Shown here: in pieces, positions 2,931 through 20,105 of the stretch
Position numbering within the stretch: the first letter of the stretch is position 1
Layout: each line of letters opens with the position of its first letter
The notes under the pieces: generated by a model
The model's input: the letters and a program-made list of their open reading frames with translations, nothing else
Database searches by the model: none
What the model was told of the DNA's origin: nothing
Source: a virus
Virus record (IMG/VR): IMGVR_UViG_2576861615_000004
Coordinates: 1-41,233 of that record
Reading direction: 5' to 3' (one strand)
DNA: 41,233 nt
Program-made: the position numbers and the translations under genes

Positions 2931-4421
2931 ATGCCACAACTTCAAAAAGCCAACCTGGGCTCGGCGCCAAATGGCGACGGTGGGGACGATCAACGAACGG
3001 CGAACGTACGATATAACGCGAACGTCGATGTGCTCGCTGCCTGCGTCGCGCTCGGCTACTCCATCCTCGGCGATAACACGACGATCGCACCCGATCGGGT
3101 CGGTGTGCGGTTCGGGCTGAACATCGGCGTTCCCGGGAAGAGAATTGTGTTGCCCCTTGCCGGGTCGGTGATGGTCAACGCATGTGTCCATTTCTTCAAC
3201 ATTGGTGTTGGCGTCGACATAGGCTTGCAAGGCAGCGATGATACGCAAATCAAGGCACTTGCTCATGGCGACTGGATCACATACGGATCAGATGGAGTCT
3301 CATACTGGCACGTGGTGGCGCGAGGGAAAATGCTGCCGGACGAGGTAGTGTCGGGCTTTCTGTCCGTGACGCGCGGGTTGAGCGTCGGCGGCGATGTGGC
3401 GATCGGTGGTCGGTTGAGTTCGGTGAACAGCCCCAATCTGTTGCCCAACTCGACCGGTGAACTACGCAACCAATGCTGGAGCGGCACGAATTTCGGTGTC
3501 GTGGCCGGTACGTCTGGGGAAGGAACGGTATTCATCAATTCGGCCGCGATCAATATCGCCGGCTACGCGATGGACTACTCGGACAACATCGCGATCAGCG
3601 CCGGGATGCAGTTGATTCTCTCCGCGGAGATCGCGACGAACGGTTTGAATGCCGGGCAGGTGTATATGAAGGTGGAATCCTTCAATTCGTCCGGCACGCT
3701 ATTGGGGACGTTTTCTACAACTCCAATTTCGACGAAGCGGGATTACACAGTCATGACTGCTTCCGGGAAGACGCCGAACGGGACGACCTATGTGCGTGTA
3801 AGCAGAGTCGCCGATAACGCGCCGAATATCTCGCAATGGGGAGTGGCGTTTCGTCGAATCAAGCTCGAGCGCGGCTCTTCTCCTTCGTTGTACTCGCAAG
3901 AGGCAAGCATCCTTTATCTGCAGGGCGCCCCGGCATTTGACGGCCGTCCGACGTTCGGGGGAAATGTTCCGTGGGACAGCTGGAATCTACCGCGCCCGTT
4001 GCAGCATTCGGATATCGGTGCGATTGCGGCGGCAGGTGGCGAAGAGCGGGATCTGGCGATAAATGACGAAGTCAGGCTCGCGCTGAACTTTACGCCCAAG
4101 GCTAACAGTGTGTTGTCCAATGCGACGCTCACCATCAACGTCGGAAACTCTTCGGCAACTGCAAACGACTTCATTGCATATCTCGACGTGTTCGACGTTG
4201 GGGCGAATGCAGTGGTCGCGCGGGGTAGTTCCAGTGTCGTGAGCGTCCCTAACGGGCAACAGTATGTCGGAGTCAGTTCGGCTACTTCATTGGCATGCGC
4301 AGTTGCATACGGCAGTCTTACTATCGGCAAGCAATACCAAATTCGCCTGCATGTGTGGAAGGTTCAACCGATTGGACCGATCTATCCGCGCAACATGAGC
4401 ATTAACGGCGTGGTGGTGTAA
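2931..4421 (+). CDS. tail fibre-like / receptor-binding-like protein inserted between gpM-like and gpL-like genes
   Basis: The N-terminal motif LGSAPNGDGGDDQRTANVRYNANVDVL resembles the conserved N-terminus of many phage fibre proteins. A central region ends in FRRIKLERGSSPSLYS, a jelly-roll/carbohydrate-binding-like signature common in fibres. GC is visibly lower than in neighbouring genes. An SD-like aaggtaagag precedes the ATG. Confidence 0.6.
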   Translation: MPQLQKANLGSAPNGDGGDDQRTANVRYNANVDVLAACVALGYSILGDNTTIAPDRVGVRFGLNIGVPGKRIVLPLAGSVMVNACVHFFNIGVGVDIGLQGSDDTQIKALAHGDWITYGSDGVSYWHVVARGKMLPDEVVSGFLSVTRGLSVGGDVAIGGRLSSVNSPNLLPNSTGELRNQCWSGTNFGVVAGTSGEGTVFINSAAINIAGYAMDYSDNIAISAGMQLILSAEIATNGLNAGQVYMKVESFNSSGTLLGTFSTTPISTKRDYTVMTASGKTPNGTTYVRVSRVADNAPNISQWGVAFRRIKLERGSSPSLYSQEASILYLQGAPAFDGRPTFGGNVPWDSWNLPRPLQHSDIGAIAAAGGEERDLAINDEVRLALNFTPKANSVLSNATLTINVGNSSATANDFIAYLDVFDVGANAVVARGSSSVVSVPNGQQYVGVSSATSLACAVAYGSLTIGKQYQIRLHVWKVQPIGPIYPRNMSINGVVV

Positions 4422-11449: not shown

Positions 11450-11734
11450 ATGCAAGAGCACGAAAAGACGATTCTGGAGTTGATCCTCATGGGCGGACTG
11501 ATTGGCATTGCGAAAGTGTTGGTGGGTAGCGAGCAGCTCACGTTCCGGCTTGTGGCCGGGCGTGCGGTACTCGGTTCGGCGACGTCGATGGTTGCGGGGC
11601 TGGCGCTGCTGCAGATCCCGGATCTGCCGCCGATCGCATTGCTCGGCCTCGGCAGTGCGCTCGGCATCGTCGGGTCGCAGTACCTCGAAGTGCTGCTGCG
11701 CCGGAACGCAAAACGAATGTTTGGGGGAAAGTGA
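11450..11734 (+). CDS. holin (three predicted TM segments, basic C-terminus)
   Basis: The 94-aa product, MQEHEKTILELILMGGLIGIAKVLVG...LLRRNAKRMFGGK, has three hydrophobic stretches. It lies directly upstream of the endolysin with a GTGA overlap. Confidence 0.75.
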   Translation: MQEHEKTILELILMGGLIGIAKVLVGSEQLTFRLVAGRAVLGSATSMVAGLALLQIPDLPPIALLGLGSALGIVGSQYLEVLLRRNAKRMFGGK

Positions 11735-12186
11735 ATATGACGAATCTGACGGCACATTTCACGCTCGAGGAATTGACCGCGAGCGACACGGCGCGCCGGC
11801 GCGGCATCGATAACACGCCGTCGGCCGCCGTTACGGCGAACCTGCGTAGGACGGCGGAAGCGCTTGAACGCGTGCGCGACGTGCTCGGCGCGCGGCCCGT
11901 GATCATCACCTCGGGCTATCGAGCAGCTGCGCTCAATCGCGCGGTTGGCGGCGTTCCGACCAGCGCGCATCTGTCGGGCCTGGCCGCCGATTTCGTCTGT
12001 CCGAAATTCGGCGCGCCGCTCGACATCTGCCGGGCGATCAGCGCGTCGCAGATCGAATTCGACCAGCTGATTCAGGAGGGCACGTGGGTTCACATCGGCC
12101 TCGCGCCGATCGGGACGAAGCCGCGGCGACAGGTGCTGACGGCATCGTTCGGCGCGACGAACACGACGTACTCGGAGGGGCTATGA
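11731..12186 (+). CDS. endolysin, peptidase M15 (VanY / L-alanyl-D-glutamate peptidase-like)
   Basis: FTLEELT...SGYR...SAH..GLAADF...WVH gives the zinc-ligand H/D/H pattern of M15 peptidases. The gene lies between the holin and Rz. ATG at 11737 is an alternative start. Confidence 0.85.
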   Translation: MNMTNLTAHFTLEELTASDTARRRGIDNTPSAAVTANLRRTAEALERVRDVLGARPVIITSGYRAAALNRAVGGVPTSAHLSGLAADFVCPKFGAPLDICRAISASQIEFDQLIQEGTWVHIGLAPIGTKPRRQVLTASFGATNTTYSEGL

Positions 12187-12665
12187 CCTGGATCGATCCG
12201 CGGCTTTGGCTCGCAATCGTCGCGGCCGTGGTCATCGGTTCCGCGGCTGGATATTTCAAGGGTCATCGCGACGCCGACCAGTCTCACACGGTGGAAACAC
12301 AGGCGCAGCGGATTCGCGAGCTCGTCGGCGAGCGCGACGAAAGCGACCGTATCGCGCGTCAACAACAGGGGAATGCTGAAAATGCTGCGAAACAACGTGA
12401 ACAGGCTCGCGCTGCTGCTGACGCTGCCGATGCTGCTGCTAACAGCCTGCGCAAGCAGGTCGCCGAGCTTGTCGCCCGCGCGCGCGATCCCGCCGCTCCG
12501 GCCGGAGGCGCGGCAACCGGCGGCACCCTCGATCTGCTTGCCGACCTGTTCGGCCGGACTGACGAGGCTGCGGGAGAGTTCGCGCGAATCGCTGACGAAC
12601 GGGGCATTGCCGGCCGGCAATGCGAAAGAGACTACGACGCGCTGACGGGCGCCGCGCCGCGATAG
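12183..12665 (+). CDS. Rz: i-spanin (Rz-like)
   Basis: ATG overlaps the endolysin stop (ATGA). The product has an N-terminal TM segment (LWLAIVAAVVIGSAAGYF) followed by a charged coiled-coil periplasmic domain. It contains an embedded +1-frame lipoprotein ORF. Confidence 0.85.
   Translation: MTWIDPRLWLAIVAAVVIGSAAGYFKGHRDADQSHTVETQAQRIRELVGERDESDRIARQQQGNAENAAKQREQARAAADAADAAANSLRKQVAELVARARDPAAPAGGAATGGTLDLLADLFGRTDEAAGEFARIADERGIAGRQCERDYDALTGAAPR
12373..12645 (+). CDS. Rz1: o-spanin (Rz1-like lipoprotein) embedded in the Rz frame
   Basis: Signal peptide plus lipobox LLLTAC, then a Pro-rich mature part. The ORF lies wholly inside the Rz-like gene in another frame, which is the classic embedded spanin architecture. 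Confidence 0.8.
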   Translation: MLKMLRNNVNRLALLLTLPMLLLTACASRSPSLSPARAIPPLRPEARQPAAPSICLPTCSAGLTRLRESSRESLTNGALPAGNAKETTTR

Positions 12666-12670
12666 AAGCA

Positions 12671-12703
12671 CCGTGGCCCGCGCTTGCCACGGGCTTTCTA
12701 TTT
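12671..12703 (+). terminator. intrinsic terminator after the lysis cassette
   Basis: Stem ccgtggc/gccacgg, followed by gctttctattt. Confidence 0.7.
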
Positions 12704-12772
12704 CCCGAATTCGTAATCGATATGTAAAATCGACGATCCGGGGATATAACAACTTCCGACCTGAGAACCACA

Positions 12773-13669
12773 ATGAAAAAAACTTTGATTTCTGCTGTGT
12801 TGGCGGGGCTTGCGCTGTCCGCGTGCGGTGGCGGCGACGACTCGTCGACGCCGGCCGCGACTGGTCCGGCAATCCGCCTTGCGTATTCCGGGGCACCGCT
12901 GGTGTCGACGCAGCGGGCGCGCGCAATGGCTGCTGCGGCGGACGTGGCGAGTGCGGCATCCGCGCCTGATGCTTCTGCCGGCGATGTGGAGCCGACGATC
13001 ACTGCGCTGCAGAACGCGTTCAAGGCGAGGGGCGCCGACATCGCGGTCTATCCTGGTGTCGTCAACGGCTCGAAGCTGCACGACATCGTCATGAGCGAAA
13101 ACGGTGGTGTCGGGCCGACTGACGCCGAGATTGCGAATTCGAAAACCAACATCAGCGAGTGGGCGCTGGTGTACTTCGAGCTCGACGATATGTCCGGATA
13201 CATCGATTCGGCACAGCGGCGCGCCGAAGTTACCCAGTTCAAGCGTGACCTGCAGGTGTACGGTGCGCGCGAATATCTCAAGGGGCGAGTCATTTTTGCG
13301 GCTCGGCCGATCGTGTCGTGTGCGGGGCCGAAGGAGGTTCGAACCGTCAACGGCGACGGGATGGTCGTGGTGGACACGTATAAGCCGACGTCGCAGGTAC
13401 TGTACGAGGTAATCGAGGGTGCCAGCAACGAGGGGTTGGTGTCGCCGATCGGTGGAATTTACAGGCCCGACGTTTCCCATATGGGCGCCGACTGCAGCAC
13501 GCCAGATCAGACGGTGCGAGATGCGCACCTCGCCAGCATTGCCGATCCGCTGGTCGATCGATACAAGGTCGCGCTCGACACGATCAATAAGTGCAAATAC
13601 AACCCGTCGGCCATTCCGGAAGCTGACCGGTCGGCACAGTGCTGGGGCATCGAGCCGGTGAATAAGTAA
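12773..13669 (+). CDS. secreted lipoprotein of unknown function (moron candidate)
   Basis: MKKTLISAVLAGLALSAC is a signal peptide with lipobox LSAC, followed by GGGDD. The 298-aa ORF sits after the late terminator and before attP. I recognised no family. Confidence 0.8.
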   Translation: MKKTLISAVLAGLALSACGGGDDSSTPAATGPAIRLAYSGAPLVSTQRARAMAAAADVASAASAPDASAGDVEPTITALQNAFKARGADIAVYPGVVNGSKLHDIVMSENGGVGPTDAEIANSKTNISEWALVYFELDDMSGYIDSAQRRAEVTQFKRDLQVYGAREYLKGRVIFAARPIVSCAGPKEVRTVNGDGMVVVDTYKPTSQVLYEVIEGASNEGLVSPIGGIYRPDVSHMGADCSTPDQTVRDAHLASIADPLVDRYKVALDTINKCKYNPSAIPEADRSAQCWGIEPVNK

Positions 13670-13875
13670 CGTCGCGCGGGGAGATCCATGTCACCGATGA
13701 AGTTGGGTCGTCCTGCCTCGATTGAATTCAAACGAAGGGCGTAGAGCCCGCGCCATTGGCAGGCTAGTCGAAAGAATAGGCGGCGTGCGGTTCGTTTCCG
13801 TTTTAACCCTCCGATGATAAAGTGCGTTGTCTACGCGGCCGTCGTGGACCCTAAAATGGCACTGAGAGGAATAAG

Positions 13876-14373
13876 ATGGCGAACGAAAACAAGCGCCTGA
13901 GCGAGGCCGGCTGGGCCGCGCTGCGCCAGCGCGAGCAGGCAGTCATGCACTACTACAACGACCAGGCGAACAACTGCACCTTCGGCGTGGGCACCCTCGC
14001 GCATACCGGCGCGTGCACGCCCGAAGAACTGCGCCGCCCGGTGACGCCGGCGCAGGTCAACGCGCAGCTCGCAGCGCGCGTGAGTACCGCGGAGGCCCAA
14101 GTCCGTCGGAACGTCACACAGCGCGAACTCACGCAGGCGCAATTCGATGAATTGGTCAGCTACACGTACAACGCCGGCAATACGGGTGCGCTGTCCGCGC
14201 TGCATTCCGCAAACCAGAACAACGACGCCGGTGTCGTATCGCACATGAATCAGCGCGTCTACATCCATCCACGCGACGCTCAAGGACGACGTCTTGCTCC
14301 GGTGCGTTCGAACGGCCTCGTCAACCGGCGCCGCCTAGAAGCCGCCCCGTTTCAGCCCCAGAGGACGCGATGA
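13876..14373 (+). CDS. GH24 (T4/lambda-type) lysozyme-like muramidase without signal or SAR/TM segment
   Basis: E20-x8-D29-x5-T35 matches the catalytic spacing of GH24 lysozymes (REQAVMHYYNDQANNCTFGVG). It also has LTQAQFDELVSYTYNAGNTGA and RRRLE blocks. The N-terminus (MANENKRLSEAGW) is hydrophilic. An SD-like gagagga lies upstream. Confidence 0.75.
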   Translation: MANENKRLSEAGWAALRQREQAVMHYYNDQANNCTFGVGTLAHTGACTPEELRRPVTPAQVNAQLAARVSTAEAQVRRNVTQRELTQAQFDELVSYTYNAGNTGALSALHSANQNNDAGVVSHMNQRVYIHPRDAQGRRLAPVRSNGLVNRRRLEAAPFQPQRTR

Positions 14374-14795
14374 AGAAGCACCTCCTCTGGATGCTCCTGG
14401 TGGTATCGGGAGCTGCGGTTGCAGATCAGAGCCCCGCCGACGAGATTTCGGCGCGCAGCGGGCTGCCGGCCAGCGAGGTCACGGCGCTACTCAACAACTG
14501 TGACGGAAGCCAGACCAGCATGAATTTCTGCGCTTGGCGCGATCAGATCGTCGCCGAGCGCGAGCTGCAGCAGGTGGTTGATAAGCAGGTCGCCGAGCAT
14601 CCGGACCGCAAGATCGGCCTTGAGGCGAAGGTGGCGAAGTGGAAGAAGGCGCGCGACACGTCCTGCGAGAAGTCGGCCCGGAAGGAGTGGGGCGACGGCT
14701 CAATGCGGCCAGCTGCGCAGGCGATTTGTGCGACGGCGGCGACGAAGCGGATGACGAAGCGGTTGTCAGTGCGTGTGACAGGCAAGCCGTCCTGA
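14370..14795 (+). CDS. secreted DUF1311 / LprI-like (lysozyme-inhibitor family) protein
   Basis: ATG overlaps the muramidase stop (ATGA). The signal peptide is MKKHLLWMLLVVSGAAVA|D. A four-Cys pattern (NNCDGSQTSMNFC ... KWKKARDTSC ... AQAIC..AATKRMTKRL) matches the DUF1311 architecture. Confidence 0.7.
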   Translation: MKKHLLWMLLVVSGAAVADQSPADEISARSGLPASEVTALLNNCDGSQTSMNFCAWRDQIVAERELQQVVDKQVAEHPDRKIGLEAKVAKWKKARDTSCEKSARKEWGDGSMRPAAQAICATAATKRMTKRLSVRVTGKPS

Positions 14796-14817
14796 TCCGA
14801 TCGGACCGGTAAGGCAA

Positions 14818-14847
14818 GAAAGCCCGCTTAGTGCGGGCTTTCTATTT
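14818..14847 (+). terminator. intrinsic terminator after the moron block
   Basis: Stem gaaagcccgc/gcgggctttc with loop ttagt, followed by tattt. It shares the 13-mer gggctttctattt with the terminator at 12671-12703. Confidence 0.8.
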
Positions 14848-15156
14848 GGCGCCGCGGTTGGTGCGATATCGGTTCGATGGCGTTACGCCAAACTCGCCGA
14901 TGAGGCGTGTCGTATAAGGCTGGAATCCGCTGCGCCCAAACTGTGCCCACGGCACAAATCGACGTCCGGCAAACCCTCTAAAAACCCACAAAACCTAAAT
15001 AGCCTACGTTGTGACCGGCGCGAGACTATTGGTTAAAAATCAATTGGTTATCACTTTCTGGCCCTGATCGATCGTCATCGACATGTATCAGATAGCCCGA
15101 GACAGATTGTGATGCTCAAAACGATGAAGCCTTGCTAGTCATGGCGTTGCGGCCGA
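14848..15156. other. candidate attP region
   Basis: A non-coding, locally AT-richer stretch directly downstream of the int 3' end. The direct repeat attggtta occurs at 15028-15035 and 15043-15050 and may be an arm-type site. The core cannot be defined without a host attB. Confidence 0.5.
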
Positions 15157-16206
15157 TCAAGACGCTTGGCGATCAAGCGAGGCATGGAAATCGGTCACAC
15201 CTTGGGACCAAACTGTGACCGATTCGGCATGTTGTGCCAGATGGTCTGGCGCAAGGTGCGCATACCGGAGAACCATGTCGTAACTCGACCATCCGCCCAG
15301 CTCCTTCAACCGCTCCAGCGGCGTGCCGTTTTGGACGTGCCAGCTCGCCCAGGTGTGGCGAACATCGTGGAATCGGAAGTTCTCGATGTTCGCCCTCGCA
15401 CATGCGGAGAGCCACTGCTCACGGTCCCACGACGTGATTCGCTTGCCGTTGCGGACAAATACGAACCGCTGATGCTTTCCAAGCTGCCGGCGGATCAAAT
15501 CTATCGCTTCACTGTTCAGCGGAACGCCGATCGGCTTGCCCGCTTTCGCCTGGTCTGGATGGATCCATGCGCGACGAGCTACCAAATCGATCTGCGACCA
15601 TTCAAGCCCCAAGATGTTTGCTTGCCTCAGGCCAGTCGCAAAGCCGAAGGCGGCAATATCCCGCATCCAGTCGCGATTGATCGAGCGCAGTAGCCGCTGC
15701 GCTTCCTCCTTCGTGATCCAGCGAATCCGCTTATTGGACTCCTTGATACATTTCAGGATCGGGGCCCGATCGATCCATTCCCACCTTACTGCTGCGTTCA
15801 GCATCCCGCGGATGGTTGCAAGATACCGATTTCGCGTCGCGACAGATGCCGGCTTGTCGTGCTTCCACCGGCCGCACATTTCCGGAAGAGCGCCCATGAT
15901 TTCGGCCGAGGTCAGAGTGTCGATCTGCCTCCCCTGAAAATAGGCGCCGAAGTGTCGTAGGTGGCCCACAAAGTTGATGTAATTCCGTTTGTGGACCTGC
16001 TCTTTGAGGTATCTCACGACGGCTTGTTCGTAGACGTAGCGGCTCCGCTCCCCGAGCTTGTGCACCCGCCACATTTCCGATCTCACCTTGTCGCGATACT
16101 CCTCAGCTTCCTTCCGGTCGGAAGTCCCACAAGAGCGGCGTATTCTTTCACCGCTTGGCGTGCGGAGATCGAGGTAATAGACGCCGCCGCGCTTTCGGAT
16201 GGACAT
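15157..16206 (-). CDS. int: tyrosine recombinase / phage integrase
   Basis: The N-terminus MSIRKRGGVYYLDLRTPSGERIRRS is an arm-binding-type sequence. The C-terminal catalytic region carries HDVRHTWASWHV ... LGGWSSYDMVLRYAHL (R..H..R..Y pattern). Confidence 0.95.
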   Translation of the reverse strand: MSIRKRGGVYYLDLRTPSGERIRRSCGTSDRKEAEEYRDKVRSEMWRVHKLGERSRYVYEQAVVRYLKEQVHKRNYINFVGHLRHFGAYFQGRQIDTLTSAEIMGALPEMCGRWKHDKPASVATRNRYLATIRGMLNAAVRWEWIDRAPILKCIKESNKRIRWITKEEAQRLLRSINRDWMRDIAAFGFATGLRQANILGLEWSQIDLVARRAWIHPDQAKAGKPIGVPLNSEAIDLIRRQLGKHQRFVFVRNGKRITSWDREQWLSACARANIENFRFHDVRHTWASWHVQNGTPLERLKELGGWSSYDMVLRYAHLAPDHLAQHAESVTVWSQGVTDFHASLDRQAS

Positions 16207-16403
16207 TGCTGATTCTCCTTTCCTTCCGTCCGCGCCGGTCGATCGGCATTGTAACCGGACGATTTCGATTTCAGTATTTCGGGCCAGATTCGCCAGACGC
16301 CGCCGATTTTGAAAAATCCCAGAGCTTTCCGGTTGGCGTAGATCGTCGAGTAAGAGACCGCGAGCAGCTCGGCGGCCTCTTTGAGGGTTAGTGCGCGTTC
16401 CAT
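16083..16403 (-). CDS. xis: excisionase-like HTH protein
   Basis: MERALTLKEAAELLAVSYSTIYANRK...GGVWRIWPE is an excisionase/AlpA-type winged HTH. An SD gaggga lies upstream of the ATG at 16403. The frame stays open for 124 nt into int. Upstream alternative starts exist at 16475 and 16541. Confidence 0.65.
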   Translation of the reverse strand: MERALTLKEAAELLAVSYSTIYANRKALGFFKIGGVWRIWPEILKSKSSGYNADRPARTEGKENQQCPSESAAASITSISARQAVKEYAALVGLPTGRKLRSIATR

Positions 16404-16515
16404 GTTTTCCCTCACAGCGTCACCTCGGCCGGTGCGATAAGAGTCTTGGCGACCCATTGGCGCATGCGCGTCCATTGCTCTTCGGGTAACAGCTGCTGCA
16501 GTTCGCTCATGTCCA

Positions 16516-18462
16516 TTATTGGTGTTCTCCTGCGCGGTCAAGCCGTTCGATCGCGGCTTGGATCAGCGCGCCCGCCTTCACGAGATTTCGACGATGCGTC
16601 GTCGGCTTCCACCAATCGGCGGCCCACGGCCATGCAGGCGGCGGATCGCCGGCAGGATACGCGAGCGTGTGCATCGCGTAGCAGCCTGCGGCGCAGGACA
16701 ATTCGTGATCGCGGTATTGGTCGTCATGTGCAGGCGTCCAGCCTTCCTGCTCGACCTGCCGGCGGCGTTCGGCGAGCACGTCGCGCGCCGCGTTCGTCAC
16801 CTCGGCGCGCGGTTCCGGCCGTTGGTTCGCCAGCTCTCGGAGAACCCTGTAAGCTTTCTTGACGCGGGGATCGGGTGAAAGGCCGATCAAGTCAAGCGCG
16901 GTTCCAATCGCCGCACGGTGCTCGACCGTCAACGCGTGGCGATCGTCTGCCTGTGCGGCGTTTTCGATCACCTCCAGCGCTTCTTCCCACGGGCAGTTCG
17001 CATTCGAATGCTCGCCGATGTCCGCACCGAAATGCTTGGCAACGGCTGCGGCCAGCTTGTCGGCCGTTTCGTGGTATTCGTCGCGCTCGCGCAGCGCTTG
17101 GTCCCACAGTTCGTCATCGGTCGGGCGAGCGTCTGCCTGCGCGGGCTGCGGGGCGGCGTAGAGCGGCACGATCTTGCCATCACCATGGGCATCAGACAGC
17201 CGCTGCGCAGCGCCCTTGTCGCGCACGATCGGAGCAAAGTCATTGCTGGCCGAGCACACATATGCCACCGCTTCCGCCGCCATAGCAGGCGAGCCGATGT
17301 ACGGCGATTTCGTGTCGAGTGCTTCGAGCAGTGCCTCGGTACGGTTCGTTGCCTCCTGCCAATACCACGATGCCGCCATCCCTTCGCCGGCGCTGTAATC
17401 CTCCAGCGCGGACTTGATCGCACCGCGCGCGAAGCTGAATAGATCGCGGCGGTCGAGCGTCACGTCGTTCGCCCCTTCCGCCCCCGTCTCGTTGGCAGGT
17501 GCGGCACGGGCGAACACCGGCACGCCAGTTTCGTCACACCTCGGCGACACGATCGCGCCGTTGCCTTCCGCCAGTTCCTTCAAATCGTCCGCACGGATAT
17601 AGCCGATGGGGGTAGCCGCTCGCTCGTCCGCCGGCACGCGCTCCGCCTCGGCCGGGATGGCAGTCGATCCGTCGACAAAGATCGCGCCTTCCTCGGGGTA
17701 CTCGGTGACCCAGCAGTACATGCCGTTGCCGGCGTGCCCTTCGCCGCGCTGGAACGTGAGTTCGCCTTCAAGCTGGTCGCGATCGCGATCCGGCGCAATG
17801 AAGTCGAGTGCTTCGATCAGCTGCGCACCGGTCAGGGTGAGCGAGTGGCCGCTGAAGTTGATCAGTTGCTCGCTCGGGTCGATTGCGCGCTCGGTAGGGG
17901 CTACTTCTTGCTGACCGTTTGTCACAATGGGTTCGAGCTGCGCGGAAGTTGCGGCGCTCCACTTTGGGAGTTCCTGCCAGCCGAGTACCTCGTCATCCGG
18001 GCCCAGAGTCGGCGTGAACAAGGTATTGAATTCCCCACTTGGGTCTTCGCCGATGTCGTACCAGCCGTCGGCGATGAATTCTTTGCCGTCTTGGTCGTGC
18101 AGGTCGTCGGCGTAGTTGTTCGCGTGGCTGGCGGCGAACACGAATACACGACGATCGTCATGTGCACGGCGAACTGCCACGATGTATTCGCGGTGTTCGC
18201 CATCCTTGGTCGGCGGGGTTCCAGTTTTCCAATGTGCACGAGCGTCGACCGTCGCAGTTTCGTGCTGCTCGACAGGGTATCCGCTGAATGCGTGCGCGAT
18301 GAACTCGGTCAGGATGAAACGATCATTGGCGTTCGGTTCGCGCGAATCGTTGTTATCGCCGACGATTTCGAACGTCTCGATTGCTGCGAGCGCAGCTTGC
18401 GCAGTGATGGGCGCAGGTTGTTCGGATGCGGACAAACTGGAATCTTGTGGTTGCGTAGTCAT
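16516..18462 (-). CDS. large acidic early protein (648 aa), mosaic, unknown function
   Basis: ATG at 18462 has a GGAG SD. The N-terminal part (AHWKTGTPP...VLGWQELPKW) resembles small W/PP-motif domains seen in lambdoid Ea22-region proteins. The C-terminal block (EGWTPAHDDQY...WPWAADWWKP...LVKAGALIQAAIERLDR) looks like a conserved phage module I cannot name with certainty. Confidence 0.8.
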   Translation of the reverse strand: MTTQPQDSSLSASEQPAPITAQAALAAIETFEIVGDNNDSREPNANDRFILTEFIAHAFSGYPVEQHETATVDARAHWKTGTPPTKDGEHREYIVAVRRAHDDRRVFVFAASHANNYADDLHDQDGKEFIADGWYDIGEDPSGEFNTLFTPTLGPDDEVLGWQELPKWSAATSAQLEPIVTNGQQEVAPTERAIDPSEQLINFSGHSLTLTGAQLIEALDFIAPDRDRDQLEGELTFQRGEGHAGNGMYCWVTEYPEEGAIFVDGSTAIPAEAERVPADERAATPIGYIRADDLKELAEGNGAIVSPRCDETGVPVFARAAPANETGAEGANDVTLDRRDLFSFARGAIKSALEDYSAGEGMAASWYWQEATNRTEALLEALDTKSPYIGSPAMAAEAVAYVCSASNDFAPIVRDKGAAQRLSDAHGDGKIVPLYAAPQPAQADARPTDDELWDQALRERDEYHETADKLAAAVAKHFGADIGEHSNANCPWEEALEVIENAAQADDRHALTVEHRAAIGTALDLIGLSPDPRVKKAYRVLRELANQRPEPRAEVTNAARDVLAERRRQVEQEGWTPAHDDQYRDHELSCAAGCYAMHTLAYPAGDPPPAWPWAADWWKPTTHRRNLVKAGALIQAAIERLDRAGEHQ

Positions 18463-18529
18463 AAAATCTCCAATGCTCAGTGCGGACGGCAGGCCGACGT
18501 GGTTGCTCCGCGGTATCCTTTTCGGCAGC

Positions 18530-18970
18530 CTAGAACGGCAGGTCCGGGTCATCGGTGGGTGGTACGGATACGGCGCGGCCCGGCTGTAGCCTCCGGCTGG
18601 CGCGCACGCGTATCCGAATCATGTCCTTGCCGGTCATGTCGCAGACGTCTAGAAGTTCGCGGAAGGCTTTATATCTGGCCTTGCTGCGCGTGCTGGCGGT
18701 CACCGTGAACCACGCTTCGTATTCGAACTCGTCGCGCCACGGGGCGAGGCAGCGCCACTCGCGCAACACTGGCGTGTCCACGATTTCCCCGTACTCGACC
18801 TGGTCAGTCGGGTGATAGAGGCGCTCCTCCTCGGACTTGTCTCCGTCGATAACGACGCAGAGATAGTGGCCGTCGGCATTCACGATCACGCCGCGTTCGC
18901 CGTAGCATTTCACCTGACGGCCGCGCTCGGCCGGCACGCCGTAGTGTTTGCGGATGTATTCGAAGCTCAC
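18530..18970 (-). CDS. hypothetical protein (146 aa), translationally coupled to the ThiF-like gene
   Basis: GTG at 18970 overlaps the ThiF-like stop (GTGA). The track ORF from 19075 is an extension overlapping ThiF. Confidence 0.65.
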   Translation of the reverse strand: MSFEYIRKHYGVPAERGRQVKCYGERGVIVNADGHYLCVVIDGDKSEEERLYHPTDQVEYGEIVDTPVLREWRCLAPWRDEFEYEAWFTVTASTRSKARYKAFRELLDVCDMTGKDMIRIRVRASRRLQPGRAVSVPPTDDPDLPF

Positions 18971-19728
18971 TGGTGGTTCTCCGTGCTCCGGACAGGCAGT
19001 GGCCGCACGTGGCCTGTCTTCAAGTTGACGAAGGCACCGCACCACGTCAGGCGCGCATGCCGGAAGAATTCCCACAGGATCGCGAGCCCCTGCGTGACGA
19101 CGGCCTGGTTGATGAACAATTCTTGCCGCTCGAGCGCCTCGGCGAGGCTGCAGCTTGGCGTGTCGTCCTCGGGAATCGACGTGTCGATCAGTTCGGGCAG
19201 TACGCTATACGGCCAGGGCAGCGGGGTGCTATCTGCGGTCGCCGTGTTTCCGGGCGCGTCGTGCGCCGCGCCGAAGATTACCTGGCCGTCGCTCGCGCGA
19301 TTTCCGAGATCCATCACATAGCTGCCCGCCTTATTCAATGCCGGCGCCAATTTCGCGCGAGCGGCCGCGCTGTCGACGCACATGACAACGAGGTCCGGCG
19401 CGCCGCGGATGATCGCGTCGGCGCCGGCATGCACCGGTCGACCGCACCAGTCGAGCCCGAAAAATGCGTTCAGGCGATGCACGAGCACGACGCTCTTTCG
19501 CTGCCCCACATCGGCCGGACTGAACATCTGCCTGCCGACGTTCGCGGCGCTCACGGTGTCGGCGTCGAACGTGGTAACGTGCAGGCCCGGGTGGCCGAGC
19601 TCGACGAGCGCGTGATTGAGGCGAGCCAGCCCTGTCAACATTTGCGACCCCGTGCCGCCGCAACCGATCAGTGCGACCGTCACTCGTTCATCGCTGAGAA
19701 AGCGGGCCGGCGTCGTGTGATGGGTCAT
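18967..19728 (-). CDS. ThiF/MoeB/E1-like adenylyltransferase (PRTRC-type ThiF family)
   Basis: Rossmann motif VALIGCGGTGSQ (GxGxxG, nt 19648-19665), DxD..SAANVGRQ, and VVMCVDSAAAR. The ATG at 19728 overlaps the upstream stop (ATGA). Confidence 0.85.
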   Translation of the reverse strand: MTHHTTPARFLSDERVTVALIGCGGTGSQMLTGLARLNHALVELGHPGLHVTTFDADTVSAANVGRQMFSPADVGQRKSVVLVHRLNAFFGLDWCGRPVHAGADAIIRGAPDLVVMCVDSAAARAKLAPALNKAGSYVMDLGNRASDGQVIFGAAHDAPGNTATADSTPLPWPYSVLPELIDTSIPEDDTPSCSLAEALERQELFINQAVVTQGLAILWEFFRHARLTWCGAFVNLKTGHVRPLPVRSTENHQ

Positions 19729-20105
19729 ACCGTCCTCCACCAAGGCGCACCGACGTCGCGCCCGATCAGCGCGGCGCATTCGGTGATCGCGCGGCGCGTC
19801 GCGCGCTCGCGCTCCGCCTGCTGCGCGCAGACGTCATGCTGCGCATCGATGTCGTCGTGCGTGAAGTGGCGGAACGCGCCCGCGCCGGCATGCGCGGTCA
19901 CGTAATCAGCGAAGTGCGTCACGTCGATTCGGGCCGCGCTCGACAACTCGAATGCGTCGGCGCGCGAGCCAATCGAATCGAACGCGCGCCAGTCGGCGGC
20001 TGCATGCGGTCGGACGTGGATTGCGGTGCAATCGCGGACCGTGTGACGCTTCGCTTCCCATCCCGCGGCCCGTGCCGCGAGTTCGAGCATGTCGAGTTGG
20101 TTCAC
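19725..20105 (-). CDS. hypothetical protein (LELAARAAGWE N-terminus; resembles small phage NinX/DUF2591-like proteins)
   Basis: GTG at 20105 overlaps the JAB gene stop (GTGA), and its own stop overlaps the ThiF ATG. The family assignment is a weak recollection only. Confidence 0.6.
   Translation of the reverse strand: MNQLDMLELAARAAGWEAKRHTVRDCTAIHVRPHAAADWRAFDSIGSRADAFELSSAARIDVTHFADYVTAHAGAGAFRHFTHDDIDAQHDVCAQQAERERATRRAITECAALIGRDVGAPWWRTV

Follow-up and report, generated by a model that had tools for sequence, protein, structure and literature searches.

In Pseudomonas aeruginosa, Tse1-3 and Tsi1-3 associate small single-domain enzymes that act in the periplasm with periplasmic immunity proteins encoded by adjacent genes, away from the T6SS (type VI secretion system) cluster. 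In Yersinia pestis, the GH24-type bacteriocin pesticin is a T4-lysozyme-like muramidase whose immunity protein, Pim, is a periplasmic protein of roughly 140 amino acids; the uptake of pesticin by FyuA/TonB is served by N-terminal domains for receptor binding and translocation. DUF1311 proteins have already been published as immunity factors against cell-wall effectors of type VI systems. DUF1311/LprI immunity of this kind was described for the lysozyme-like effectors of the Pantoea hcp islands (PMC9796082), for SPI-19 of Salmonella Dublin (SED_RS06235/06230; PMC8867033) and for the WHIX effectors (PMC12135965), and in the case of Etse4/Etsi4 from EHEC both the toxicity of the effector in the periplasm and the rescue by its partner were demonstrated (PMC12981562).

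In this study, we analysed a 41,233-nucleotide stretch of DNA from a temperate Burkholderia phage (IMG/VR record IMGVR_UViG_2576861615_000004, hereafter the window) in which the gene of a GH24 muramidase is followed by that of a DUF1311/LprI protein (Table 1). We propose, with moderate confidence and from the sequence, that the two genes form an antibacterial effector-immunity cassette and are a moron of the phage, the muramidase most likely being Hcp cargo. As in Etse4-Etsi4 and in the S. Dublin, Pantoea and WHIX systems, a small DUF1311 protein that bears a Sec signal comes directly after a cell-wall hydrolase without export signal. However, the effectors of those systems are larger (LysM, transglycosylase or WHIX) and are encoded in or beside T6SS clusters, whereas the present enzyme is a bare GH24 domain of 165 residues and, unlike in Etse4-type systems, the pair is carried by a phage, far from T6SS genes. 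Tae4-Tai4 of Burkholderia cenocepacia (BCAM1464/1465) likewise combines a single-domain enzyme of less than 20 kDa acting in the periplasm with an adjacent periplasmic immunity protein, and is an orphan located away from the T6SS locus (PMC6612558). More generally, it is normal for small cargo effectors to be orphans remote from T6SS loci. Tse1-3 and Tae4 are amidases or GH23-type enzymes, whereas the enzyme of the window is a GH24 muramidase whose secretion is predicted. Our search of the literature found no paper or experiment on the GH24 muramidase/DUF1311 pair family.

Table 1. Position of the features discussed in the text (nucleotides of the window)
Feature	Position	Strand	Basis
Own lysis cassette of the phage	11450..12665	+	Pfam matches
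Holin	about 11450-11734	+	Phage_holin_3_2, 1.2e-30
M15 endolysin	11731-12186	+	Peptidase_M15_3, 3.1e-21
Rz	12183-12665	+	DUF2514, 1.1e-21
Rz1, embedded	12373-12645	+	lipobox LLTAC in translation
Terminator-like hairpin after lysis genes	12671-12692		
Phage lipoprotein, KS9 gp26-like, 298 aa	12773..13669	+	PHROG 8011, 5e-148
Mobile block with the whole cassette (both genes, the region upstream of them and the terminator)	13655..14921	.	B. cepacia match
Candidate promoter element of the extended -10 type, TGATAAAGT	13815..13823	+	conservation
Palindrome CTACG-N7-CGTGG in leader	13831..13847	+	conserved in 7 Burkholderia/Trinickia loci
Shine-Dalgarno GAGAGG, 6 nt before ATG	13864..13869	+	invariant in Burkholderia/Trinickia copies
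GH24 muramidase, putative effector, 165 aa	13876..14373	+	Pfam PF00959
DUF1311/LprI periplasmic protein, putative immunity, 141 aa	14370..14795	+	Pfam PF07007
Partner signal peptide, residues 1-18	14370-14423	+	cleavage between AVA and D
Intrinsic-terminator-like hairpin, then TCTATTT	14815..14850	+	11-bp GC-rich stem
Tyrosine integrase, convergent with cassette	15157..16206	-	Pfam Phage_integrase, 1e-30

An earlier reading of the letters alone (the sequence-only reading) had described the first gene as a GH24 muramidase that keeps the exact E-x8-D-x5-T spacing, and the ORF, its Pfam match and its catalytic residues bear this out. The HMM searches suggested on that occasion place both genes above the cut-off of their families; for the muramidase, the match to PF00959 (Phage_lysozyme) has an E-value of 5.1e-15 and 56.3 bits for a cut-off of 22.3, and the protein also matches the endolysin family PHROG 7 (E 9.7e-22). 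The catalytic pattern E20-x8-D29-x5-T35 is invariant across 27 homologues with identities down to 57%, and so is a cysteine pair, C34/C47, in the same alignment. The AF2 model (pLDDT 94.3) adopts the two-lobe fold of T4-type lysozymes. Foldseek aligns it with the endolysin 7m5i of phage FAHEc1 (probability 1.0, TM 0.68-0.70), as well as with 6et6, 8app and the lysozymes of P22, P1 and T4, all with a probability of 1.0. In alignment, E20, D29 and T35 coincide with the catalytic residues of 7m5i. The protein is thus predicted to be active on peptidoglycan. At 30-33% identity, 7m5i and the Felixounavirus lysins have this fold and the same three catalytic residues; the muramidase of the window differs from such GH24 endolysins in that it lies outside the lysis cassette, carries an invariant cysteine pair that most endolysin-type relatives of our set lack, and is coupled to a secreted partner.

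Positions 5-157 of the profile built from the muramidase alignment correspond to residues 6-151 of 7m5i, a single-domain endolysin of 160 residues. The whole 165-residue protein is therefore catalytic domain, in which a trafficking domain would find no space, and no XVIPCD-type or other secretion domain was detected in it. As had been claimed, the muramidase has no signal peptide, SAR or transmembrane segment, its maximal Kyte-Doolittle hydropathy over 19 residues being 0.39. Where pesticin adds uptake domains to its lysozyme-like part, only the catalytic domain is present here; the bacteriocin-type option of the sequence-only reading fails for this reason, since receptor-binding and translocation domains have no place in the protein. 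Temperate phages are known to carry antibacterial toxin-immunity cargo, as illustrated by the MuF toxins (Jamet et al. 2017) and by the PAAR-TseV cluster of B. gladioli phage AB4 (PMC13366799). Yet these MuF and PAAR toxins have a trafficking domain, whereas the present cassette has none and would rely wholly on the Hcp of the host.

The partner matches PF07007 (LprI/DUF1311) with an E-value of 4.6e-11 and 43.5 bits for a cut-off of 22. The cleavable signal peptide and the four-cysteine DUF1311 architecture noticed at first sight are both confirmed: the signal (MKKH, a hydrophobic stretch, then AVA before the cleaved bond) has no lipobox and is conserved in homologues, and the four cysteines, C44, C54, C99 and C120, are all invariant. 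The AF2 model is all-helical (pLDDT 88.4) and superimposes on the DUF1311 structure 3gi7 (Foldseek probability 1.0, TMt 0.77, rmsd 2.6 over 98 columns), with an E-value of only 0.1; the sequence profile of the partner matches the same structure with an E-value of 0.0048. The next best structural match after 3gi7 is TsiV3, which is statistically weak (TMt 0.69-0.73, E 2.6-3.9). Helical bundles are common folds, a caveat for this comparison. The V. cholerae VgrG3/TsiV3 pair likewise consists of a muramidase and a small helical periplasmic neutraliser, delivered there by the T6SS; it differs in that VgrG3 is fused to a spike and does not have the GH24 fold, and TsiV3 has no detectable sequence similarity to the partner in addition to the weak fold match.

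The sequence-only reading had compared the partner with LprI of M. tuberculosis, a lysozyme inhibitor. Membership of the DUF1311/LprI family holds. The functional side of the comparison does not, however, as inhibition of c-type lysozyme by LprI was attributed to its MliC domain and not to DUF1311, for which there is no evidence of lysozyme inhibition (PMC7933661). Pfam finds no MliC domain in the partner, which consists of DUF1311 only. No homologue of the partner was found among 50,697 phage genomes. From the published immunity proteins of this family and the arrangement of the locus, we infer that the partner would bind and neutralise the muramidase.

The two ORFs overlap by an ATGA at 14370-14373, exactly as first read. 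This coupling is a general feature: in 16/16 loci of the close clade, from Burkholderia, Paraburkholderia, Trinickia, Collimonas, Variovorax, Thiobacillus, Sterolibacteriaceae and Janthinobacterium, a DUF1311 gene lies directly downstream of the muramidase gene, mostly with a 4-nt overlap. The same loci display the layout expected of Hcp cargo, namely an effector without Sec signal next to a gene for a periplasm-targeted immunity protein (16/16). The location of the pair varies, some copies being found in prophages and others in the core chromosome without phage genes nearby; at one syntenic core site of B. thailandensis and B. gladioli, between rph-rdgB-hemN and TonB-like-MFS, it stands alone. 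In Collimonas and B. cepacia, it adjoins TIR-domain genes of defence type. All-against-all clustering of the neighbouring ORFs recovered only housekeeping families as recurrent neighbours (phospholipase C, ABC-F ATPase, acetyl-CoA synthetase, porin, LysR).

In muramidase clades at 36-56% identity, the same overlapping position is occupied by an unrelated signal-peptide protein of 135-160 residues. Taken over all clades, the muramidases would have at least two, apparently unrelated, families of cognate immunity proteins, and perhaps a third. In addition, an intact partner persists beside a decayed muramidase, affected by in-frame internal deletions or a frameshift, in four genomes and one database protein (L020, L025, L033, L041 and P0232). 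Finally, the partner is the faster-diverging protein in every locus, for example with identities of 92% for the enzyme versus 79% for the partner, 66 versus 46% and 65 versus 40%. Coupling, core-chromosome copies, swapping of the partner, decay of the toxin and faster divergence of the partner all speak for the effector-immunity reading originally proposed.

The cassette behaves as a mobile unit. A 1278-bp block is 96% identical to an islet in the chromosome of B. cepacia (L094-L097), flanked by ribA and a truncated integrase on one side and by a TIR gene on the other, which marks the cassette as mobile and as a probable moron. Homology to phage KS9 ends at 13669, and the cassette is missing from both KS9 and PhiBt-E264.1, close relatives of the phage; the preceding lipoprotein gene, by comparison, has homologues of 89% DNA identity in KS9 (gp26) and in PhiBt-E264.1. 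The cassette recurs at the prophage edge in five IMG/VR contigs. Related prophage contigs stop 3-39 nt past the partner gene, which also places the cassette at the edge of the prophage, and attP should lie within about 14922-15156.

Among the features of a moron, the terminator is conserved and presence varies between relatives, and the promoter is represented by a -10-like motif that escapes the scan for consensus sigma-70 promoters, which called nothing upstream of the pair. This candidate element belongs to a stretch of about 70 nt before the ATG that is conserved in Burkholderia and Trinickia, in prophage and chromosomal copies alike, and our promoter proposal is based on conservation only. 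The arms of the leader palindrome covary, as CCGCG/CGCGG in one locus (L014) and partly, as CCGAG/CGCGG, in another (L093); it is a candidate operator or 5′UTR hairpin. Downstream of the pair, the 65-nt region 14796-14860 folds with -30.8 kcal/mol (z -3.3), and two other loci (L003 and L004) have the same hairpin, beyond which similarity stops. Over 13400-15300, Rfam gave chance matches below threshold only, and no PADLOC defence model matched the muramidase, the partner or the neighbouring lipoprotein.

Upstream, the complete lysis cassette with an M15 endolysin that had been announced is indeed present, with holin, M15, Rz and Rz1. The pair had also been placed after the late terminator. A terminator-like hairpin does follow the lysis genes, but the lipoprotein gene lies between it and the pair, and no convincing terminator was found between the lipoprotein gene and the pair. 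As no promoter was called and no upstream terminator is clear, read-through from the late operon into the cassette is possible. Expression of the pair in the lysogen is predicted.

The link to type VI secretion comes from a sister clade of muramidases, in which hcp (PF05638, 6.4e-38) lies directly beside the muramidase gene in eight loci. In two of them, hcp is on the same strand at a distance of 17-32 nt (L039, L042), in one the called hcp ORF overlaps the muramidase ORF (L044) and in the others hcp is divergent (L026, L031, L036-L038). These enzymes, which are 36-47% identical to that of the window and have a different partner family, carry an E-D-C-(T/S)-C signature including the invariant cysteine pair; this pair is mostly missing from the ordinary endolysin-type GH24 proteins of our set, and a few distant homologues outside the clade have it. 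The adjacency of hcp points to delivery of the sister-clade muramidases as type VI Hcp cargo and, by extension, the DUF1311-paired copy is probably fired by the T6SS of the host. The window contains neither hcp, vgrG or PAAR nor another T6SS gene, and the same holds up to 10 kb from each of the 16+ DUF1311-paired loci; in the Pfam search of 57 large neighbouring ORFs, none of the families VgrG, Rhs, ClpV and TssM was recurrent. The connection of the DUF1311-paired loci to the T6SS therefore passes only through homologues at 36-47% identity that have another partner. Together with the published DUF1311 immunity proteins, the sister-clade adjacency supports the cargo reading already put forward from the letters, delivery of this particular copy, and its dependence on T6SS and Hcp, being predicted by analogy.

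We can propose the following role for the cassette. The muramidase would be made in the cytoplasm, where it should be harmless as it has no export signal, and would most likely be loaded as small cargo onto the Hcp of the host. Upon type VI injection into the periplasm of neighbouring bacteria, it would cleave the glycan strands of peptidoglycan, and its cysteine pair may form a C34/C47 disulfide in the target periplasm. The co-translated DUF1311 protein, exported by Sec to the periplasm of the lysogen, would neutralise enzyme arriving from sister cells. The lysogen would in this way acquire a weapon together with the shield that fits it, which could enable it to kill its non-lysogenic kin.

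A toxin-immunity pair could also reach its targets without the T6SS, through prophage-induced or explosive lysis, vesicles or another secretion system. Such a route would suit the lack of any T6SS gene around the DUF1311-paired loci and a carrier phage by which part of the population is lysed, and the TIR-domain neighbours in Collimonas and B. cepacia would suggest a general conflict island. We nevertheless hold it to be unlikely: a free GH24 domain of this size lacks a module for receptor binding or translocation that would take it across an outer membrane, and it has no secretion domain, XVIPCD-type or other; the hcp adjacency in the sister clade offers a specific alternative; and orphan cargo effectors such as Tae4-Tai4 are normal (PMC6612558).

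The conservation of the muramidase, which exceeds that of the partner in intact pairs, and its invariant catalytic residues imply strong selection on the enzyme itself. This weighs against a mainly defensive role, in which the DUF1311 protein would shield the lysogen from muramidases of rivals or of superinfecting phages and the muramidase would be a passenger. Retention of the partner beside deleted or frameshifted muramidases is what a defensive role would predict, and orphan LprI-domain immunity genes do occur in the Pantoea hcp islands (PMC9796082). However, translational coupling links both genes in all 16 loci, and the virion lysozymes of other phages come from diverse families, against which a narrow inhibitor is unlikely to provide general exclusion. 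Superinfection exclusion, as initially envisaged, leaves the conservation and the coupling unexplained, and we give the defensive account a slimmer chance than delivery by another route. A second endolysin that exits through the holin lesion, with an anti-lysin partner delaying or buffering it to time lysis, is very improbable and was rejected on genomic context and distribution, even though the cassette has the same strand as the lysis genes and lies downstream of them with no convincing terminator between, and although no endolysin family is commoner than GH24 and the closest structure is that of an endolysin: holin, M15 endolysin, Rz and Rz1 are already encoded by the phage, KS9 and PhiBt-E264.1 do without the pair, the partner has no homologue in the phage genomes searched, the majority of copies are chromosomal and have no phage lysis genes nearby, and the Hcp linkage of the sister clade has no lysis rationale.

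If the effector-immunity reading is true, the cassette represents, for the Burkholderia cepacia complex, a case of lysogenic conversion that serves warfare between bacteria, and lysogens would be favoured over uninfected kin, which would help the phage to spread. More tentatively, though we take the idea seriously, the phage would hijack the T6SS of its host so that lysogens kill siblings and close relatives that are not lysogenic, the cassette acting as a greenbeard or addiction module that enforces and spreads lysogeny, and the GH24 enzymes with the cysteine pair would form an unrecognised family of endolysin-derived Hcp cargo, possibly activated by disulfide formation in the periplasm of the prey. 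The homologues would also define a widespread, unstudied family of small endolysin-derived muramidases that are probably type VI cargo. Candidates for therapy among temperate Burkholderia phages may carry such competitive-fitness cargo, and automatic annotation will go on mislabelling genes of this kind as phage lysins. A label as GTA endolysin was also considered and rejected, the NCBIfam BgtA score of 42 bits for a cut-off of 315 bits reflecting generic GH24 similarity. The identical muramidase protein occurs on 218 public contigs, where its sole annotation is 'lysozyme'.

The GH24 muramidase of the window and its secreted DUF1311/LprI neighbour are best interpreted as a moron that encodes an antibacterial effector and its immunity protein. 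The enzyme matches the PHROG 7 endolysin profile (9.7e-22), and its AlphaFold model (pLDDT 94.3) matched GH24 endolysins at probability 1.0 in a structure search. Residues E20, D29 and T35, spaced as E-x8-D-x5-T, coincide in alignment with the catalytic positions of endolysin 7m5i, and none of them varies across 27 homologues as distant as 57% identity. Peak hydropathy over 19 residues is 0.39, indicating that the protein has no signal, SAR or transmembrane segment. The partner, whose ATG overlaps the muramidase TGA as ATGA, starts with a conserved Sec-type signal peptide (MKKH, a hydrophobic core and AVA|D, without a lipobox) and has four cysteines, all invariant. Its model is helical (pLDDT 88.4), the nearest solved structure being the DUF1311 protein 3gi7. 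The sequence-only reading, which had described a signal-less muramidase with this catalytic spacing, the ATGA overlap and a four-cysteine DUF1311 protein with a cleavable signal peptide, and had proposed HMM searches for both families, is thus borne out, the Pfam matches included. Its appeal to LprI holds in part: the partner does belong to the DUF1311/LprI family, but the name "lysozyme inhibitor" derives from M. tuberculosis LprI, whose activity is attributed to an MliC domain that is absent here (PMC7933661).

Coordinates of the cassette, its phage neighbours and features of homologous loci (L-numbers)
Feature	Coordinates	Strand	Remarks
GH24 muramidase, 165 aa	13876-14373	+	Pfam Phage_lysozyme, 5.1e-15
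DUF1311/LprI partner, 141 aa	14370-14795	+	Pfam LprI/DUF1311, 4.6e-11
Phage lipoprotein, KS9 gp26-like, 298 aa	12773-13669		PHROG 8011; lipobox LSAC; between lysis genes and cassette
Tyrosine integrase	15157-16206		convergent with cassette
HTH_17 excisionase-like gene	16083-16541	-	beyond integrase
678-aa ORF	16516-18552	-	no Pfam match; beyond integrase
ThiF-family gene	18967-19779	-	beyond integrase
Alternative-partner genes	L037:10540-11028, L042:2463-2939, L021:10501-10977, L019:10489-10917, others		immunity position
Decayed-muramidase loci	L020:4706-5487, L025:3018-3716, L033:10001-10773, L041:123-983		DUF1311 gene downstream intact
Orphan hcp genes beside Cys-pair GH24	L037:9216-9707(-), L039:9463-9963(+), L042:1455-1946(+), L044:65-556(+)		also L026, L031, L036, L038

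Both proteins occur widely in Burkholderiaceae and also outside that family. Among the nearest muramidase relatives, a clade with identities of 56% or more, the DUF1311 gene lies directly 3′ of the muramidase (16/16 loci), and in most of these loci the two genes overlap by 4 nt. B. thailandensis and B. gladioli carry the pair alone, at the same core-genome site and with no phage genes. The same architecture recurs at lower identity (36-56%) in clades from Oxalobacteraceae, Acetobacteraceae, Acidobacteria and Ralstonia, with a downstream gene that encodes an unrelated 135-160-aa signal-peptide protein of no Pfam family. In four genomes the muramidase has decayed, by an in-frame internal deletion in three and a frameshift in the fourth, and one database protein fuses a muramidase stub to an intact partner. 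Moreover, the partner always diverges more than the enzyme. Altogether, coupling, chromosomal copies, partner swapping, toxin decay and relative rates typify a toxin with its cognate immunity protein, and the pair is very probably a toxin-immunity pair of some kind. The alternative partners form one or two unnamed families that share a G-x-W-x-V motif close to the N-terminus of the mature protein. The decayed loci amount to natural knockouts of the toxin and could serve as controls.

The window phage is a KS9/PhiBt-E264.1-like (Stanholtvirus) Burkholderia phage with a complete lysis cassette of its own (holin, M15 endolysin, Rz and embedded Rz1), separate from the muramidase as previously noted. 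The PHROG 8011 lipoprotein is also conserved in KS9, phi1026b and phiE125. Homology to KS9 breaks off exactly at 13669, after which KS9 and PhiBt-E264.1 hold other genes. Among 50,697 phage genomes, tblastn found no match for the partner, and the nearest lysins are at most ~32% identical to the muramidase, which makes the pair accessory cargo rather than phage core. Upstream, Rz and the gp26-like gene are separated by only 107 nt (12666-12772), an interval filled by a Dam methylase gene of ~790 nt in KS9, PhiBt-E264.1 and the L003 prophage; the window phage therefore has no Dam methylase gene there.

How the toxin might be delivered is suggested by its relatives. Besides the pair itself, no gene family recurs around it, and no recurrent VgrG, Rhs, ClpV or TssM family was found among 57 large neighbouring ORFs. 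In the sister clade, eight loci carry hcp (PF05638, 6.4e-38) immediately next to the muramidase, either on the same strand (17-32 nt away in L039 and L042; the called ORFs overlap in L044) or divergently (L026, L031, L036-L038). These islets of orphan hcp, Cys-pair GH24 and secreted partner occur in Oxalobacteraceae and unclassified Pseudomonadota MAGs. In a neighbour-joining tree the hcp-linked, Acetobacteraceae and DUF1311-paired clades cluster together, and E-D-C-(T/S)-C occupies positions 20, 29, 34, 35 and 47 in nearly all their members (L028 excepted). The Cys pair is absent from most ordinary endolysin-like GH24 proteins of the set and present in a small number of remote homologues that fall outside these clades.

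Three weaker observations fit a T6SS picture. In a Gammaproteobacteria MAG, a 3470-aa protein with fn3, SpvB, FG-GAP, TcdB and RHS repeats (L069:59-10471) ends in a GH24 domain, a distant relative that forms the toxic end of a polymorphic toxin. Methylobacter sp. BlB1 (L012:1-4526) groups a GH24 muramidase with an M15_3 peptidase and two Tlde1-domain genes; the place of DUF1311 behind the muramidase is taken by a 92-aa signal-peptide ORF with six Cys (3263-3541), and the cluster resembles an island of effectors aimed at the cell wall. Finally, the second-best, weak fold match of the partner is TsiV3, the immunity protein against a V. cholerae T6SS muramidase. Together with hcp adjacency and the shared Cys signature, they make T6SS delivery as small Hcp cargo the most likely route, which we favour with moderate confidence. 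Since T6SS genes are linked neither to the window copy nor to any DUF1311-paired relative, this route is only inferred for the window copy; the T6SS-cargo type of effector-immunity pair proposed from sequence is otherwise supported by coupling, partner swapping, toxin decay, rates and sister-clade hcp.

In several known systems a periplasmic DUF1311/LprI protein, encoded 3′ of a cell-wall effector, is the proposed T6SS immunity protein: Pantoea hcp islands (PMC9796082), Salmonella Dublin (PMC8867033), WHIX effectors (PMC12135965) and EHEC Etse4/Etsi4, in which periplasmic toxicity was relieved by the partner (PMC12981562). An antibacterial T6SS-1 is active in B. cenocepacia, which also encodes at least one small orphan effector pair (PMC6612558). 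Phage carriage of toxins and T6SS effectors is known as well (PMC13366799). No publication on the present GH24 family turned up in the searchable literature. The pair is of interest for phage-host ecology but brings no new principle.

The pair also constitutes a self-contained mobile unit. A block of 1278 bp (13655-14921) shares 96% identity with a chromosomal islet of B. cepacia, the muramidase protein being 100% identical; in that islet the block is flanked by ribA and a truncated integrase on one side and a cNMP-binding/TIR gene on the other. In Burkholderia and Trinickia, prophage and chromosomal copies share a conserved leader of ~70 nt 5′ of the muramidase ATG. It contains a candidate extended -10-like element (TGATAAAGT), a ribosome-binding site (GAGAGG) and a palindrome (CTACG-N7-CGTGG, 13831-13847) whose arms covary in Trinickia and partly in B. 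gladioli, and which could be an operator or a 5′UTR hairpin. The partner gene is followed by a strong hairpin whose tail is rich in T (surrounding 65-nt region, -30.8 kcal/mol, z -3.3); the hairpin is common to another prophage copy, in which similarity stops just after it. The pair fills the same slot in five IMG/VR prophage contigs, three of which end 3-39 nt past the partner gene, placing the cassette at the prophage edge. TIR-domain genes adjoin the cassette in two unrelated contexts (L094:8748-9656 in B. cepacia; L007:11187-12281 in Collimonas), an arrangement that suggests conflict or defence islets; one of these genes encodes a cNMP-binding and CAP12-PCTIR TIR protein.
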